From Paramecium tetraurelia (lineage: Eukaryota), in the NCBI GenBank assembly GCA_000165425.1, contig CT868027.1:62001-126000 (forward strand): DNA of 64,000 nt, written 5' to 3'. A program made the translations under genes and the position numbers. Shown here piece by piece: positions 8,801 to 23,700 of this stretch (within the stretch, counting starts at the first letter, position 1; every line of letters begins with the position of its first letter). A model generated the notes under the pieces. The model was given only the letters and a program-made list of their open reading frames with translations, had not been told where the DNA came from and ran no database searches.

Positions 8801-10694
8801 TCAATATGGATAAGGATGTTTCTCACTAAATTTAATGACACCTTCTATCTCTTTCATTACTCTAAGCACCATTTCTTCCTGATTGGGATATGAAATGACT
8901 TGAATGTTAACGGGTAATCCTTCAGCATTTTACATATTACGATTCATCATAATATAAACTAAATCAATAGTCCTTTCCTTGCCATCTATTTTTAAATCCT
9001 CTCCTCCTTGCACTCTTGTAATCGGCATACTTCCAGCTGGAACATCAACCGTATTCCACATCCATGTATACAATCTAATAATATAACAAATAAAGAAGTA
9101 CGCTGCCAAAGGAAGGACCTTGGATGCTCCGTGTTTAACTGCTGGACAACCAAATCCAGGTACAATTACAGCATCAATTTAGTTTTATTTCAAATATTAT
9201 AAAAATTGAAAATTCATTCTCTTTTGTTTTCCTGAATTTACCAAAAATTAATAAACGTCTAAACCATGAGTTTGTTTACTCATTACATATAAAGTTTTCT
9301 ATCCAAATATCCTTAATAAAGGTGCCAAAATATATGTTTATAAAAACACAGGTATTTTTGTTCCTGTCTCCATTAATTCATACTCTTCAATGATTTTTTC
9401 ACCTTTCAAATTTTCTCCAAAAGACTTAAATCCTCCTTCAGCTGCCACTAACCTTGGAAAAGCAACAGCTAATTCATGCTCCAATTCTGTATCCAAATTT
9501 ATTTCAACAATTTCATGTCCTTTGTCTTTCAAAGCCTAACAAGCTTCCTTAACAGCTCTTTTCATACAATTGGGTGGCAATAGATCATTGAATTACTCAA
9601 TATATCCTATTCTCAATTTATCCTTTTTAGCATTCTAAGTGAAATCAAGGTCTCGAGGGTACCAATAAGGATCTTAGATTTATGGTGGTAGTTCAGAATA
9701 ACTCTTAGAATCAAATAAGACTCTTAACATAACTATTAGATCATCTACACTACGACCTAATGGACCCTTGGATGGCCGTATGTTAACCATTCCACTAGCT
9801 GCTTTTTCAATCACTCCTTCACCAACTTCTGTTTATCTAACCATACTTGGTTTAAAACCATAAACTCCACAAAATGCAGCTGGTATTCTTATGCTTCCAC
9901 CAATATCTGAACCCATACCAATGACACTGCATCGAGCAGCTTGTAAGGCAGCTTCTCCTCCTGAGGATCCACCTACTGCTCTATCCTTATTCCAAGGATT
10001 AAGAGATCTCCCAAATATTCTATTAGTAGATTCAAAAGTCATTGCCAGTTGAGGTAAATTGCTTCTTACAAATATAATACCTCTAGCCTTTTTGATCAAA
10101 GATACTTAGATTCCATCATAGGTAGCTGGCTTATTCAATCGAGAAGCTAATCCGTAAGTGTTATCAAATCCTTTTTGGATGTAAGTGTCTTTAACTGATA
10201 CAGGGATTCCAAAAAGATCGTATTTATAGATAATTTGAGGGATCTATAGAAATTTCCTAATCTTGTCTCCTATGTTAAATCACTCTATAAATATACTCAG
10301 CCTCTTGTATTGCTTCTATGAAGTTGACATCTGTGATAAGATTCAAGTTATCCGAGGTTGCTACTGACAATGTTCTATTAATAAATACTAGCAACACTTG
10401 TTTAACTGTGGCCTTTTTTTCAAACAAAATATATTTAATGTCAGAAATTGTGAAATTTAATATATCCTTTTCCAATTGAGCATTTAAACCTGTGGACAAA
10501 TCATGTGATTATCTAAATTACTAAATAGATCTTTTGAGTTCCTCCCTCCTCTATTCACATAATTTATCATATTTTCTTTAAATTCTGTACTGGGCAACAA
10601 AGTTTGTCAGACCATAGAGTGCTAGTATCCCAAAAGCACCGAAAAGATACTTGTGTTCTTTTTTTGAGAACAAATTTTGTAATTTGAATTACAT
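8801..10694 (-). CDS. Amidase-signature family protein (fatty-acid amide hydrolase-like); apparent +1 frameshift at ~10240
   Basis: GIPVSVKD, GGSSGGE and GSDIGGSIRIPAAFCG motifs; N-terminal hydrophobic anchor; intron 10270-10296. Confidence 0.9.
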
Positions 10695-14665: not shown

Positions 14666-16752
14666 ATGTATGAGCTTCTTTAGAATGTGGATAACTATAT
14701 TTAATTAGGTTTTGCTAGCCTTTCGATCCTATTCTTTTATATTGTTTATTAGACAGATGTAATTGGGAATTATAATTCTTAGACATTCATGATATAAAAT
14801 GAAGAGAATTGGGATTACTTGAGATAGCAATATGCTCAATTGTACGATTCTTAGGAATTGGATAAATTTCATTTCCCGAATGAGATGGCTAGTTTTTGTT
14901 ATAAAATTTAAGAAAAAATAACATCAATATAATGGGAATACATTTATTTCATTTGCTTATCAGGATTAGTTTTGATGCTTTATTCAGTATTTGTTTGTTC
15001 ATATCCTAGTTTTTTTTTCTTGACAGCGGATTCTTATACTTCGGAATGAACATCATATTAGGAGGACTAACAATGTTTTACCTATGTTATTTTATAAATA
15101 ACGTATATTTGGGAACTGTTGTAAAAGTTCCATTGCGAGTAATTTGTATATCAATCAGACTGATCCTCTGCGCTGGGCCTATGGTAATGGATTCTTCTTG
15201 AGTCTATTTTGTCTGGGAATGCTAATAATTTCAATACTTTTAGTCAATCAAATAAATAAGTTCGTTTTCCACAAACCAATAGGCATAGCCTATGTATTAG
15301 GAGGTACAAAACGTCTGATTAACAAGGCTCGCTATCCTTATATTTTAGAAGAGAGTAGCAATCAATCCTGGGAAGAAGTATATAGATAGGAACCGATCTT
15401 CATGTAAAAGACAACCTAGGATCAGAAGGTGTGATGGATGTAATTGGATATTCTGAAAAGTTAGCATCTATAATGGGTCATATCTTAAGTGATAACCATT
15501 TGCTAGATCTAATAATTGTATTGTTATTGTATTTCACATTGCCGAGAGTATAAATTAATTATTAATAGATTTTTTAAATTGGAGCTATGAACACTAATGT
15601 TTACTCAATAGTAATGTTAATCAATTACTTTGCATAATTTATTATTTCATTTTTCATTTCCTCCTTTTAATCAGAAGATATAGCTAAGAATGTCTTATAG
15701 AATGTGAGAACCTAAATTATAGCTGCTAGTCTTTTTAGTATTATCTCATTAATACTATTATACATCTACAACTCCACATATATGAGTATAGCTAGTTTTG
15801 GCCTCATAACTAGTATGCTACTCATAATCTATTTGGAATATGTTACTAATCATTCATTTCCCTAAGTCAGGAACATTGCTTCAGCAGCCCTGAATGCGCC
15901 TATGTTAAATATTATGAATGGCAATTTTCTAGGAGACATGGGTTAGTTATTCTTTGTTGGCTTAACAGGATTATTCATCTTCATTTCTAAGGAAATTGGT
16001 GGAGATGAGGGTCTTTATGCTTTTTTGACTGGATTAATTATGAATGCCATAGTTATGACATCTATATAATTTAGTGGTAATTCGATAATGATTGGCTTAA
16101 GATTCGCTTAGATTGCCTAGGTGGATTCATTGCCTTTAGAAAAAGTATAACTAAAATATATATAAAAATAGATCAATTTAGCTGCATGCAATTATGGTTT
16201 ATATTTAAAAACAATTACGATTATTTGCTTGTTTTTGATCACAATAATATTTTTTCCTTTGTAAGAAATCTAGTGTTTTGCAGTGTTCATAGGACTCATA
16301 TTGGCTTACTTTTTCAAAGGGATTTTTCTAAAGTTTGTTGGAACTTAGATTGTTAGATAATTACGAGGGTTTTATGAGGGAACATTCTTGGAAGGGCAAA
16401 CTTACAATTTATGGGAATTAACTGGATTAATTGGTCTGGTAATATTAATTAATTATTATTCTATTAGCAATTTATTATTTTGAATTTTTTTAAATACTTC
16501 ACTTCTAAGTTTGGAATGTATTCATACGTTTACAGTTACACATAGATTGTGTTGATTTTAAGTGCCAGAGCCATTATAACTGGGAGCAGTCTTAAGAATG
16601 TGAGAGTTCTTGAGGGAACTCTAAAGGAGAACAAGATAATTTATTTATCTCATATGTATGCAGATATTCAAGGCATAGCTATGGAAGAATCTCCAGCATT
16701 GCCTTAGATAGGATTTTTAGGGATATCAATCGTGCTTGGGTTAACAATTTGA
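14666..16752 (+). CDS. Divergent membrane H+-translocating pyrophosphatase-like protein with degenerate catalytic motifs
   Basis: Intact ~650-aa polytopic ORF after five introns (23, 20, 23, 21, 29 nt). Colinear with mPPase segments: GGSLSLYFR..IGTDLHVK, LEYVTNHSFPQVRNIA, TGSSLKNVR, ADIQGIAMEES. Confidence 0.75.
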
Positions 16753-16857
16753 ATAATTCCAGTTTAAAATTTAATCGAACTTTTATTAAATGGATATTTA
16801 ATATTTATTATATTAATTCTTCTTTCTCCTCAGTTTTCACTTACATCATCAGAACGA

Positions 16858-17472
16858 ATGTCATCTCAAATTACGAAAAAGCCATCTTTAAAGCTCTAAT
16901 TAAACAAGAAGACATTGGATACTTTGGCTAAGGAGAAAACCAACATTCCTCCTAGTTCCAAATGCTCTCAAAAGACAGTCTCCTCTATTAACGTAAGATA
17001 TAACCTTAATAATCAATTTAGACAACTAGCTGCACATCTTCATCTTCCAAATAAAACTACCCATGTAAAGAATCAAAGTCAAATCCCTCCAAAAATTCCG
17101 ATTAACATTCATAATTAATTCAATATTTGCTCTAAGAAAATATAGAATTACAAAAGCAGAACTAAGACAAGGATTAATTGATAAATTTCTTGAGTACAAA
17201 ACAATCCCCCAAGAGAAGATCAATTTTAAATACAGAAAGGAGCACTGAAATCAAATCTTAAAAACTTCCTTAGATTTCATAGGCTAAAAATTCACTAGAG
17301 ATTGATAAGTATTTATTTCTTTAATTTCAATACTAGTTTAAACGAAGGAGTCTAAGCACCATTTTGTTTTACATTTTGTCAATAAGATACTCAGAGTTAA
17401 TAAAGTGTCAGAAATAAAAAATTGCCCAAAGAATTTTAAATTGTACCAAACAAAAAAAGATATTTTGTATGA
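16858..17472 (+). CDS. Small Ser/Gln/Lys-rich hypothetical protein with short coiled coil
   Basis: MSSQITKKPSLKLQL...QYLLQENIELQKQNQDKDQLINFL...KKRYFV*; introns of 29 and 28 nt. Confidence 0.6.
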
Positions 17473-18335: not shown

Positions 18336-20695
18336 ATGAATTAAGAAATTTAATAATTTAGAGCCACTTTACCAATAAATGAATTCAAATAAGAAATTTT
18401 GAAATAGACTTTGGAAAATACTTTTATTATCATAACTGGTGACACTGGTTCAGGTAAGTCAACTCAATTACCATAATATCTATTGGATGATGAGAATTTC
18501 AGATTAAGCATTTGTGAAAAGAGAAAATAGTTTTTGGAGGAATAAGTTGAGGAGAAAGAGTAACCGAAGGTTTAGGGATTCTTGTCTAAGAAGTAGAAGC
18601 CATTTGTTCCAGAGGACAGAAAAAATTCAACTGATTTAAAGATTGTGGTAACACAACCCAGAAGGATGGCTGCTATATCAATGGCCAAAAGAGTAGCATT
18701 TGAGAGAAATGTATAACTATATCTTATATATCAATTAATAGCAAAACTTAGGCAGTGAAGTTGGATATTCAATAAGATTTGACAATTCCACTACTAATAC
18801 TACTTAATTAAGATATGTGACTGATGGTATATTGGTGAGAGAATGTTTGTAGGATAAGGATTTAACCGGATATGATGTTGTAATTCTCGATGAGGCTCAT
18901 GAGAGATCCCTATATACAGATGTTCTATTTGCATTGGTGAAGACAGCTGCAAAGAGAAGGAAGGGAAGTTTAAAAGTTATCATAACATCTGCGACACTAA
19001 ACATCAATATCTTTAAGACCTATTTTGAAGGTTGTCCCTATGTCAAAGTTCATGGTAAGTCATTTCCTGTTGAAGTGAAATATTCTGAGCATAATATCAC
19101 TTAATAAAAAAGAAATCATGATGCTGTGAATGCTGCCATCAGAATGCATTTGCATGAAGGTCCAGGAGATATCTTAGTATTTCTACCTGGGAGTGAGGAT
19201 TGCGAAGTTTGCAGAAAATTTTGTTATGAGAGATTAGCAGAAGTGCTAAACTCTGGAGTTGAAGTCCCAAGTGTATTATTATACACATTGTATGGCAGTC
19301 AGACTTCTGAAGACCAGAGTCAAGTATTTTAAAGAGCTGATGAACATACTAGAAAAATCATATTCTGTACAAATATAGCTGAAACTTCTTTGACTATTGA
19401 TAATATTGGATTTGTGGTAGATACTGGTTATGTTAAATAAAAAGTGTATAATCCAAGGACTGGCATGGACTCTCTCATCATTTAACCTATATCTAAGACT
19501 CAAGCCATTTAAAGAACAGGTAGAGCAGGTAGAACACAAGCTGGAAAGTGTTATAGATTATTTTCTAAATAGTTTTATGAATCACTTTCAGAGCACACAA
19601 CAGCTGAAATCATGAGAGTTAATTTAGCATCAGTGATGTTACTACTTAAATCTATGGGAATAGATGATGTAGTGAGATTTGAATTTATGGAACAACCCAC
19701 TCAAGAAGCTATTCTATAATCTTTGAGATAATTATATCTAATATAAGCAATTGATGAGGATGGATATATCACTCCTATGGGTTATGAGATGTCTAGATAT
19801 CCGTTGGAACCAAGTTATGCAAAAGCATTAATCACTTCAAAATTGATGGAATGTTCAAGTGAAATGAGTGCTATTGTGGCCATATTGTCTACAGAAAGCA
19901 TTTGGTAAAGAATTACCAGAGTAGATGTAGATGGATATTAAAAGTTACAAGAAACCCAGACTCAACATGCAGATCCTGCAGGAGATCACTTAAGTTTATT
20001 GAAAATATTTTCAGAATGGAGATAAGCAACATTTAACGAACAATTTGCTAAGGATACCCTTCTGAATTTAAGGTCTTTGAGATAGGCTGATAATATTCGC
20101 TAATAGTTATAATAATTAGTTGAAGGCACTAGTAGAAAGAAATGTTTACAGTTTTATGAATAGGATTATCTTTATAAATTGTTTAGAAAATAGAAGGATT
20201 CAAAGAAGTGGAATATCAATGAGAGTATTAAATTAGCATTATGTTCTGGATTTTATTTTAATACTGCTCGTAAGATGCATAATGGTGAAGATACCTACTT
20301 GATGGTGTATCCTGAGGGCACAGTTGTGGATACAGATCCATAGTCTGTATATACAGTGATCCAACAATACCCAGAGACTGTGATATTTACTGAATTGGGA
20401 GGTACATCGTAAGTGAGGGGAGTGATGAAATTGATTAGTGAAATCAATATAGAACTGGGTTAAACCCTACTTTTCAAATATGGTGAAGGTATGAAATGAT
20501 TGTTGATTTTAGGTTGATCTATTCAAATTGGCAAGAATTGAATTCCAATAAAGAGGAAGAGATGCAGTGCATGAAAGAAGACAAAAGAAAATATAGGAAT
20601 AAGAGAAGTAAAAAGAGTAGGAAGAAAAGGAGAAACTAGAAAAACGTTAATTATATAAGGCAAGATTCGAATAAAGAAAGAAGGTTAAAATGTGA
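18336..20695 (+). CDS. DEAH-box RNA helicase, DHX40/Prp22-like; apparent +1 frameshift at ~20452-20455
   Basis: [34 protein letters not shown] and QRTGRAGR motifs; HA2/OB regions; tail KARFEQRKK resembles DHX40. Confidence 0.92.
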
Positions 20696-20722: not shown

Positions 20723-23700
20723 TCATTCTTTAAAGACTGATAGTCTCTTTTATACTGATCTTTTGTTCTCGTGATTCTCATCATACACTGATCCGATTCT
20801 GATACTACTCTTACGACGTAATTTACTGGCAATTGTTTCATCTAAATTCTCTTCTTCAATGCCTTCCTCAGCAAAGATATTGATGCCATTAAACCATCTG
20901 GAAGGTAGAGTCCTTACAAATATGGCTACGATCATGCCACCCAATGCAAATATCCAACAGAATATATGTTACCACACAGTTAATTCACATACAACTGCGA
21001 ATTTATCTCCAAATAGAATCAGAAGATATTGCACTGCTACTTCAATTAAATTTATCAACCAAAATAAGGAATTGTTGAATAATCCACTAAAAGGATTAAG
21101 AGACACTTCATCCAGTTTTCTGCAGCTGATCGAATTGCAAATTTACATCAAAACAAATGTTTAAAAAAACATTGTTAATCTTTATATTGGTCTGTCTTCA
21201 TATTCCTTATCCAAGGAGTCATCAAAATCAAATATTCTATCTGGAATAAACAAGATTAGACACAAAATAGCAATTTGATATATACTAGCTCCAATAACTG
21301 TCCTGTACATAATTGAATTGACAATGCTCTCTCTTTTACCATAAGGTTTCCTATTTAGAAGCCTATCACTGGGAGGTTCAGTTGCCAAAGCTAAGGATGC
21401 AAAAGTATCCATGATTAGATTCACCCACAGCATTTGAATACTTGTTAAGGGAGCTTCCTTTGTAACAGCTGCTCCAAGCACACTCATAAACAAAGCCACA
21501 ACATTGACAGTCAATTAAAACTAGATGAATTTACGAATACAATTATAAATATTTCTTCCCCATTTGCATGCAGTGATAATAGAACTGAAATTGTCATCCA
21601 ATAAAATGATATCCGCAGCATCTTTACAAACATCTGTCCCTGTGATACCCATAGCAAATCCGACATCTGCCTTTCTTAATGCAGGAGCATCATTGGTTCC
21701 ATCTCCAGTCACTGCAATCACATTATCTAATTATTTCAATCCTGTTGCCAATATAAATTTATCTTCAGGAGTTGCTCTTGCCAATACTTTTAAATGAACC
21801 ACAATTTCTTAAAATTTTAAGAGATCCTTGACTTCTTGCACTTCAACTCCATCCTTAATCACTTTATTCAAACCGCCAGTCAATTACCTAAATTAGGATC
21901 CTTCCATGGCTTCATATTCATGTAAGTCACTATCTGGTCCTAGAATTTTGCAATCTCTTGCAATAGCTTTTGCCTGTGTTAATGTTATCACCAGTTACCA
22001 TTCTGACTATTATTCCAGATCTATAACACTATTAAATAGCACTTGGAACATCCGGTCTTACAGGATCTTTGATTCCAGCTATATTTATTAAAGTTAAATC
22101 AGTTAAAAGATATTCTTCTGGAATAGAATCAAAATCATATTCAAGATGATAATTTAATATTTTGTATGCATTTCCTAGTGTTCTGAGTGCTTAACTAGCA
22201 TAGTCTTCTATTATTCATAACATGTTATTAGTATCCTAAGATGTCAATTTAGCTTCTTCTCCATTTGAGTTGATAAATTTAGAGCACTTTTTTAAAACCA
22301 TTTCAGGAGCACCCTTCGTAAACAAATATATCTTATTATTATGATGAACAAGGGAAATCATCATTTTTCTCTTTGAATTTAATGGAATCACTCTCAATAT
22401 ATTATCAGATGGTCTATAACTAGACAGCTAATAACCTAACATATCACAAAACTCTATCAAAGCACATTCTGTTTTGTTTCCTATTTATTCGAATTTACCA
22501 TTAATGCCTCTCTTAGGATATGCACTTGAATTATAGAGATTGCTGGCAGCCAGGAGATCTAAATAATCCTTTTCCAGATTCTTGATCTAGAGTAACTGGT
22601 AATCTTTGTAATTAGAACCATAACAAAATATTGAATTGACTTGCATTGTATTCATTGTCAGAGTACCAGTTTTATCACTACAAATATTGTTGACTCCTCC
22701 CATAATTTCACAAGAGGCAAGAGTCTTAACTAAATTTTATTCATCTTTCATTTTGTTCACCGAAAAGGCTAAGGTAATAGTAACAGCCAAAGGTAGACCC
22801 TCTGGAACTGCCACAACAATAATAGTAACACCAATCATGAAAAACTTGAGTATTTTTTGGAGACAATCAAGATGCCAAAATTATTCCCAAAATGTTTATT
22901 CATCATTCTATGCATATTCTATGAATAGTCGAACCAGCAGAATAACGAATGTTAATATTGCCACAATTACACCCACTTTACCTATTGTTTCTGCCACTCC
23001 TTCTAATTTCACTTACAAAGGAGTTGGTGTACTATCACTTTCACCAAGTCTCTTCATTTCATTCTGCACTGTTTTCTCACCCACTAATTTAATGTTTTAT
23101 ATCAATACCTTGCAAAACCAACATAACTCCAGTTCCCTCATTAACCTTAGTTCCTGACATCAAAAAAGGAGATTTCCCCTTCTAATCCTTCAAACATACA
23201 TCGAGTGGTGCCTTCAACATTTCATCAGACTCTCCTGTCATTGCTGATTCATCTATTTTCACTTCACTGCCACTCAAATATAATCCTAAAATCAAATTTT
23301 ATACTCACCATCCACATTGAAAATATCTCCTAATTAAAACAATAAGACGTCACCAACGACAATATCCTTATTGCTAATTGTTGTTATATTCCCCCCTCGC
23401 TTTACCTACACGTGTCCCTCGTCTAGCTTTGATTATAATTTAGCAAATTGTCTCTCTTTAGCATAATTGTTGCCTGCTGTAATTCCTATGATCAAGAAGA
23501 TTGCCAAAAATATCGTTAAGCTAACTTATCTGATCATAAATTTACCCCTCATACCATCCACCTTCACCCTCGATAATTCCCAATACAGTTGATACAATTG
23601 CAGCAACAATCAAGATTTGCAGCATTGTATCACCTAAACACTCTACTATTAATTTCCATAAAGGTGTTAATTCTTTTACAATAGGTAAATTAGCTCCGTA

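Follow-up and report, generated by a model that had tools for sequence, protein, structure and literature searches.

A probable, evolutionarily conserved pseudoenzyme of the membrane pyrophosphatase family in Paramecium

The DNA analysed here (the window) is a 64,000 nucleotide (nt) stretch of Paramecium tetraurelia contig CT868027.1 (assembly GCA_000165425.1, positions 62,001 to 126,000). It showed Paramecium-like traits, with 28% G+C, TGA as the sole stop codon and introns of 20-30 nt, and an exon of the nearby amidase gene encoded a sequence with 98% identity to a P. tetraurelia protein. The plus-strand locus at 14666-16752 was found to be the P. tetraurelia gene GSPATT00033436001 (XP_001430981.1; UniProt A0BYG6, by 90%-identity cluster). 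The gene is therefore already public under an enzyme name, as A0BYG6 has been automatically named 'H(+)-exporting diphosphatase' in UniProt. Our analysis indicates that the gene very probably encodes a catalytically dead homologue of the membrane pyrophosphatases (mPPases) that is maintained by selection. A preliminary description, made from the sequence of the locus, had proposed a protein of mPPase fold with an erased catalytic centre, and no decaying pseudogene; this core proposal was borne out by homology, predicted fold, residue loss, constraint and spliced transcription.

Gene model and transcription

The gene was modelled with seven introns of 24, 23, 20, 23, 21, 27 and 29 nt (Table 1), rather than the five counted previously; an RNA contig designated X17, obtained by assembly, lacks six of them. 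No TGA interrupted the spliced coding sequence in frame, while the five remaining frames contained 8-19 (13.4 expected, P ~1.5e-6). The uninterrupted open reading frame (ORF) of ~650 amino acids (aa) that had been described is present as a spliced frame of 639 aa without a TGA, although it hinges on a splice at intron 3 that was not seen in the assembled RNA; retention of this intron ends the frame at 15199-15201. The RNA and the orthologues favoured 15304-15326 over an alternative intron at 15355-15389, which was dropped.

Contig X17 (1967 nt, word depth 31) spans 14667-16780 with exactly six gaps, totalling 147 nt, which correspond to introns 1, 2, 4, 5, 6 and 7; this pattern indicates that it derives from spliced RNA of the plus-strand gene. 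Removal of intron 4 was confirmed by a further RNA sequencing (RNA-seq) library, X20. Raw oligo-dT RNA-seq reads were also found at the locus, 82 in X23 and 97 in X24, with the first mate mostly on the minus strand. Expression, the absence of which would have counted against the earlier proposal, was therefore evident from both the spliced contig and the oligo-dT reads.

The 639-aa model equals the deposited 647-aa P. tetraurelia protein (P0141) less the 8 residues encoded by intron 1, which that public model wrongly retains as VIGNYNSQ. As intron 1 is removed in X17 and in the P. octaurelia, P. pentaurelia, P. sonneborni and P. bursaria models, together with the P. primaurelia N-terminal half-model P0143, the deposited P. 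tetraurelia model probably overstates the length of the protein by 8 aa. The P. primaurelia model P0012 retains intron 5 as VQINYQQ; this translation is the same as that of the window, which points to a near-identical intron sequence in the two. Introns 1, 5 and 6 (three of the seven) are each a multiple of three in length and contain no in-frame TGA, such that their retention would be invisible to nonsense surveillance.

Table 1. Positions of the mPPase-like gene, its introns and motif remnants, and the neighbouring genes in the window
Feature	Position	Strand	Remarks
Whole gene	14666..16752	+	ATG 14666, TGA 16750-16752; seven-intron model, 639 aa
Intron 1, 24 nt, GTA..TAG	14759..14782	+	Multiple of three, no in-frame stop; spliced out in X17
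Intron 2, 23 nt	14987..15009	+	Spliced out in X17
Intron 3, 20 nt, GTAA..CAG	15139..15158	+	Placed from orthologue models; retained in assembled RNA
TGA closing the frame if intron 3 is retained	15199..15201	+	After 162 codons; ORF 14884..15201
Intron 4, 23 nt, GT..AAG	15304..15326	+	Spliced out in X17 and X20 record 5 (reported at 15302)
QIGTDLHV-KDNLGSEGVMD, motif remnant of transmembrane helix (TM) 5, loop 5-6 and TM6	15383..15439	+	Canonical DVGADLVGKVE[17 aa]...DNVGDNVGD, loop lost
Intron 5, 21 nt	15548..15568	+	Multiple of three, no in-frame stop; spliced out in X17
EYVTNHSFPQVRN, cytosolic end of TM10 and loop 10-11	15836..15874	+	Best-conserved stretch; E354 and T357 common to mPPases; H359, V364 and R365 family-invariant
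QFSGNSIMIGLRFAQIA	16067..16117	+	Colinear with canonical DAYGPvaDNAGGIAEMA, no Asp/Glu left (profile alignment)
Intron 6, 27 nt	16145..16171	+	Multiple of three, no in-frame stop; spliced out in X17
Intron 7, 29 nt	16439..16467	+	Spliced out in X17 (reported at 16438)
GSSLKNVRV	16582..16608	+	Colinear with canonical GGAWDNAKK (profile alignments)
ADIQGIAMEES	16660..16692	+	Colinear in the global alignment alone with canonical GDTVGDPFKDT; assignment of low confidence
Amidase (PF01425)	8804-10279	-
DEAH-type helicase (Helicase_C, HA2, OB_NTP_bind)	18403-20499	+
P-type cation ATPase (E1-E2_ATPase, Cation_ATPase, Cation_ATPase_C)	20726-23159	-

Relationship to membrane pyrophosphatases

A Pfam scan of seven sequences (the window piece, P0001, P0002, P0141, P0142, P0144 and P0012) revealed PF03030 (H_PPase) as the sole family match in all seven, with E values of 1.5e-6 to 1.1e-4. 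Comparison of an alignment of three full-length members with 30 canonical prokaryotic mPPases using hhalign gave a probability of 93.5% (E 2.3e-7). When the family alignment was enlarged to 11 sequences, the probability against 30 canonical mPPases was 96.3% (E 1.6e-9), and the alignment paired residues 144-592 of the family with canonical residues 118-602 over 422 colinear columns. A global alignment was colinear over residues 1-639 (553 columns, E 8e-6). In control comparisons a reversed canonical alignment yielded one column (E 0.7), and rotated ones always recovered the colinear part. A family profile searched against the Protein Data Bank (PDB) matched the V. radiata (mung bean) H+-PPase over residues 321-557 at E 5e-7, and a second profile gave E 3.3e-4. 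The match to the mPPase profile on which the earlier proposal depended was therefore found, below the Pfam cut-off in the case of PF03030 and clearly in the hhalign and PDB profile comparisons.

Additional, lesser indications agreed with this assignment. The hydropathy profiles correlated along the global alignment (r 0.76, a value reached by 0 of 203 shifted controls), which carries little weight as the alignment was fitted. The nearest ESM Atlas clusters were all PF03030, at lead-level scores of 0.89 (whole protein) and 0.82 (C-terminal half). For the orthologue P0001 the nearest ESM Atlas clusters were three H_PPase clusters dominated by Myxococcota (0.88-0.89), which is a lead only.

A structure predicted by AlphaFold2 (AF2), with the family and 30 canonical mPPases in the alignment, had a predicted local distance difference test score (pLDDT) of 74.6 and a predicted template modelling score (pTM) of 0.80. 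A Foldseek search with this model returned 36 chains at E<=0.001, all of which were mPPases, the next chain having an E value of 0.06. Structural alignment with VIA-align gave Z scores of 25.6-30.7 for 21 mPPase entries, whereas the first unrelated chain scored 7.0. The highest value was obtained for 8b37_A of P. aerophilum (Z 30.7, 2.7 Å over 509 residues), and the T. maritima entries gave 25.6-27.6. The superposition on the mung-bean enzyme that had been suggested as a check aligned residues 1-639 of the predicted model with residues 3-751 of 4a01_A (Z 27.8, 3.2 Å over 548 residues). In the model, the 16-helix mPPase architecture, with its inner and outer rings of helices, is retained.

Several of the results weigh against the mPPase assignment. 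The Pfam scores (21.4-27.6 bits) lay under the curated cut-off of 29.7 in all seven sequences, and NCBIfam scores for P0141 and P0002 were 10-16 bits against cut-offs of 546-1321, a canonical control (L001) scoring 957 bits. Residues 261-430 were the sole single segment to give a significant hhalign result alone (probability 94.4%, E 9.4e-8); segments 1-143, 144-260, 420-520, 500-639 and 431-639 did not (E 0.03-0.3). The first 143 and last 200 residues, which show no significant similarity of their own, were assigned by colinearity and fold. AF2 with a family-only alignment gave an unusable model (pLDDT 42.3, pTM 0.45) and, because canonical mPPases were included in the folding alignment, the fold result agrees with the profile result without being independent of it. 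A phmmer search of the central exon against the PDB returned 0 matches. Taking the profile comparisons together, we conclude from sequence that the protein is a distant but genuine mPPase homologue.

Loss of the catalytic centre and conservation of the family

Conservation was benchmarked on 52 canonical mPPases, in which 176 columns reach at least 95% conservation, including 34 of D/E/K/R type. The window protein kept 45 of the 176, compared with 44 each in P. sonneborni and P. bursaria; it kept 9 of the 34 charged columns and P. bursaria kept 8. Independently of any alignment, the WDN, GD..GDP, DNVGD and GNTT motifs, which all 52 canonical mPPases possess, were absent from this protein. Two Asp residues were counted in residues 431-639, whereas canonical mPPases carry 8.9 on average in their C-terminal 230 residues. 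The loss of most Mg- and pyrophosphate (PPi)-binding Asp and Lys residues, as previously described, is thus upheld by the charged columns and the four missing motifs, and the EYxT segment described as remaining is indeed retained, E354 and T357 being residues common to mPPases.

Both profile alignments placed a 17-residue deletion in loop 5-6 that covers the canonical GKVE..IPEDDPRNPA. Relative to V. radiata, this removes the equivalents of K261, E263, E268, D269, D270 and R272; those of D530 and N534 are also deleted. The residues kept were R242 (R199 here), D257 (D214; Glu in P. bursaria), D279-N280 (D219-N220), D287 (D228; Asn in P. bursaria), E423 of EYYT (E354) and D723 (D611). Substitutions were found at K250 (R207), D253 (Q210), D283 (S223), D294 (E234), E301 (G241), D691 (K588), K694 (R591), K695 (V592), D727 (I615), K730 (M617) and D731 (E618). 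No acidic or basic residue was found opposite D500, D507 and K541, where the two alignments differ in detail. It counts against these readings that residue assignments within the individually non-significant segments rest on colinear alignment, and that the two alignments differ.

The segments previously matched to mPPase motifs are encoded as described. Using genetic code table 6, QIGTDLHVKDN (15383-15415), SIMGHILSD (15467-15493) and QFSGNSIMIGLRFAQIA translate exactly at those positions, and GSSLKNVRV and ADIQGIAMEES were located in the last exon. SIMGHILSD had been equated with DNVGDNVGD; both profile alignments instead place KDNLGSEGVMD (15407-15439) there, after the loop 5-6 deletion. 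The other four correspondences hold, although those in the C-terminal third do so by colinear alignment, without independent significant similarity. Conserved Asp and Lys residues line the mPPase hydrolytic centre and pumping requires closure by loop 5-6, according to the available part of PMC5150537. We infer from the residues lost that the protein would carry out neither PPi hydrolysis nor pumping.

Orthologues were identified in P. octaurelia (630/639 residues identical, 98.6%), P. pentaurelia (624/639, 97.7%), P. sonneborni (604/639, 94.5%) and P. bursaria (638 aa; 271/621, 43.6%). Constraint was gauged by protein identity, with the amidase that lies on the same contigs as the P. pentaurelia and P. 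sonneborni orthologues as the control; no amidase counterpart was found for P. bursaria. The identity of the amidase was 538/608 (88.5%) in P. pentaurelia and 514/608 (84.5%) in P. sonneborni and, by this measure, the mPPase-like protein changes 3-5 times more slowly than the adjoining amidase.

Comparison of the aurelia species with P. bursaria showed 263 of 639 positions to be identical, most densely in residues 261-430 (91/170) and most sparsely in residues 521-639 (30/119). G342, E354, T357, H359, V364, R365, N378, G412 and G434 were invariant in every covering fragment as well, H359, V364 and R365 being so in all seven fragments that cover them. A phmmer search with the central region, run on 1.84 billion representatives, returned nine matches, all fragments of 54-269 aa. 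Fragments at 54-84% identity suggest, from their sequences, further Paramecium-like species. The fragment P0008 (269 aa) matched the dead family with a probability of 97.1% (E 4.9e-11) and canonical mPPases with only 6.7%, which indicates that the dead family extends past close Paramecium relatives. P0008, P0010, P0011 and P0017 have E(W/Y)LTSHG..(V)(R/K) where the family has EYVTNHS..VRN, and the acidic residues of DAYGP..DNAGG are also gone from them; to judge by sequence, they probably represent the same dead family in other organisms.

A word-based search, which could miss a copy, showed one copy per species and no second copy or second cluster. No second mPPase-like gene was found when all window ORFs were searched with a canonical profile by hmmsearch, and two metagenome scans gave 0 confirmed loci of orthologous DNA. 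On the sequence and RNA data, the features by which a pseudoenzyme is recognised are all present: enzyme ancestry, lost catalytic residues, purifying selection and expression.

The neighbouring genes (Table 1) gave no sign of functional clustering with the mPPase-like gene. Paralogues of the amidase from whole-genome duplication persist in P. pentaurelia and P. sonneborni, while the mPPase-like gene was seen as a single copy per species. The next gene (16804-16900 onward, plus strand) begins ~50 nt past the mPPase-like stop codon. It is far better represented among the RNA contigs, with a word depth of 400-770 against 31 for the mPPase-like gene, and one X17 contig carried a G>C variant in it at 16852. 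The ORF piece at 16855-17181 matched no Pfam family.

Possible roles and the retained 20-nt intron

The best-kept parts of the protein are helices 10-12 and cytosolic loop 10-11, and the least-kept are its last 119 residues, which align to the canonical C-terminal end including the pore-lining helices 15-16. This distribution favours a scaffold or partner over a channel. mPPases form homodimers through helices 10, 13 and 15. As the dimer interface is formed mainly by helices 10 and 13 (PMC5150537, available part), the well-conserved helix-10 region hints at retained dimerisation, which is suggestive only. We propose that the mPPase scaffold would have been kept by selection after the hydrolytic residues, loop 5-6 and the gate were lost. 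The protein would then work through contacts and not conduction, as a dimer-forming membrane scaffold or a regulatory partner, and a remodelled cytosolic face with the invariant His359, Arg365 and Asn378 would replace the PPi site. Taken as a whole, a selected dead homologue that acts as a scaffold or partner rather than a channel is the account we favour with moderate confidence; it tells against it that the preference for a scaffold is drawn from conservation patterns only.

The mPPase core may alternatively have been repurposed as a passive transporter or channel, a PPi-independent conduit for an ion or small solute, which we regard as unlikely but credible. This would fit the full 16-helix architecture of the predicted model, and polar or charged residues conserved between the aurelia species and P. 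bursaria lie in or near helices (D219-N220, R199-E200, D301, K304, R311, D387 and E411). However, the gate of mPPases comprises Glu 6.53/6.57, Asp 6.50 and Lys 16.50 (PMC5150537, available part), and the aligned positions are not conserved: Glu 6.57 corresponds to G241, Asp 6.50 to E234 (Q in P. bursaria), and the last helix, PQIGFLGISIVLGLTI, has no Lys, with the helix-16 alignment being of low confidence. The sparse conservation of the last 119 residues also argues against a conduit.

Intron 3 raises a different possibility, which is that the gene is non-productive or decaying in P. tetraurelia, with most transcripts keeping the intron and yielding at best a short N-terminal fragment. Both contig sets that cover intron 3 retain it (X17 record 1 and X20 record 4, the latter aligning over 15026-15188 with 0 gaps), and the productive splice was seen in no read or contig. 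The oligo-dT reads had zero depth over 15067-15147 and are thus uninformative on this intron. Additionally, P. primaurelia is annotated as having two genes that divide at intron 3, P0143 (162 aa) and P0012 (484 aa); P0143 ends with the exact read-through tail of the window, VICISIRLILCAGPMVMDSS, and P0012 begins at an internal Met. A mostly retained intron would also be unusual, given a mean retention of 3.3% per P. tetraurelia intron in Table 1 of PMC5663052, a source available in part. These observations count against a productive gene. They are opposed by the gene models of five of the six species (P. tetraurelia, P. octaurelia, P. pentaurelia, P. sonneborni and P. bursaria), which splice intron 3 to join ...VPLR to (T/D)DPLRW, and by the 477 downstream codons, which stay open across four more introns. 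Variability among four aurelia species was similar before and after the intron (8 positions of the 143 in residues 1-143 and 35 of the 496 in residues 144-639), which indicates that both sides are constrained, and P. bursaria shares 63 of the 143 N-terminal residues. Moreover, RNA contigs drop rare variants, so that a minority spliced form may exist and go unseen. The constraint on both sides supports the earlier statement that the gene does not look like a pseudogene, whereas the retention of intron 3 in assembled transcripts qualifies it, and we consider a non-productive gene distinctly improbable.

Intron lengths in P. tetraurelia are given as 18-33 nt in the available part of PMC8997360, and P. 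bursaria introns of <23 nt are described as less well spliced in that of PMC12862383. We regard intron 3 as genuine but weakly spliced, and the inefficient splicing of these 20 nt probably restricts how much full-length protein is made. Programmed frameshifting was dropped as an explanation: folding of the RNA at 15100-15230, which includes intron 3, showed no frameshift-type structure (z -0.83; 36 of 200 shuffled sequences were equally stable), and no slippery heptamer was seen by eye.

A still-active but very divergent pyrophosphatase or pump with different ligands would accord with the UniProt name and with the persistence of acidic D214, D219, D228, D611, E354 and E594 plus R199, but is barely credible in view of the 25 of 34 conserved charged columns lost, the deleted loop 5-6, the DAYGP..DNAGG equivalent without Asp or Glu, the two Asp in the C-terminal 209 residues and the differences between the aurelia species and P. 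bursaria at the equivalents of K250, D253, D257, D283 and D287.

A more elaborate version of the scaffold or partner proposal can be outlined, which we offer as speculation and think rather improbable. The family would be an old, ciliate-wide group of dead mPPases in which a conserved 'poison' micro-intron, the 20-nt intron 3, controls output: it would be retained in most mRNAs of at least two aurelia species, and full-length protein would appear only once splicing is turned on. This protein might then pair with an active H+-PPase or with itself via helices 10/13 and regulate an acidic compartment, for example the acidocalcisome or contractile vacuole.

Among solved structures, the best sequence match was the K+-dependent H+-PPase of V. 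radiata (PDB 4A01, 5GPJ, 6AFS-6AFZ), which has the same helix order. The EYxT at the end of TM10 and the equivalents of R242 and D279-N280 are kept, whereas identity is 12-14% and the Paramecium protein is ~100 residues shorter. The T. maritima Na+-PPase (4AV3, 5LZQ) and the P. aerophilum K+-independent H+-PPase (8B37) have the same fold as the predicted model; they differ in being active homodimeric pumps in which hydrolytic centre and gate are both complete (PMC5150537, available part). The sequence-profile match to T. maritima 4AV3 reached only E 2.5. The canonical ciliate H+-PPases PdVP1 and PdVP2 of Philasterides dicentrarchi belong to the same superfamily and likewise have a ciliate host, but are described as functional enzymes; their lengths are given as 746 and 810 aa in the part of PMC11210485 available. 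P. tetraurelia has relatives of both the PdVP1 and PdVP2 types, according to the phylogeny in the available part of PMC8055999.

No literature on a non-catalytic mPPase or on GSPATT00033436001/A0BYG6 was found, with subscription papers and supplements lying outside the search. A parallel is offered by the inactive rhomboids (iRhoms), in which a polytopic enzyme fold has lost catalysis, is conserved and acts through protein contacts. By analogy the Paramecium protein would be a comparable pseudoenzyme, of an unrelated fold.

mPPases have been studied as primary ion pumps, protist drug targets and crop-engineering tools, and every mPPase described in the literature searched is an enzyme. A dead member that is nearly unchanged across the aurelia species and persists to P. 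bursaria would imply a second use for the 16-helix scaffold. It would also mean that databases over-count working pumps, since a dead protein is labelled H(+)-exporting diphosphatase. Paramecium, in which RNA interference (RNAi) by feeding and tagging with green fluorescent protein (GFP) are routine, would be a system for finding this second use, and the weakly spliced 20-nt intron may allow a connection of minimal intron size with the control of protein output to be tested.

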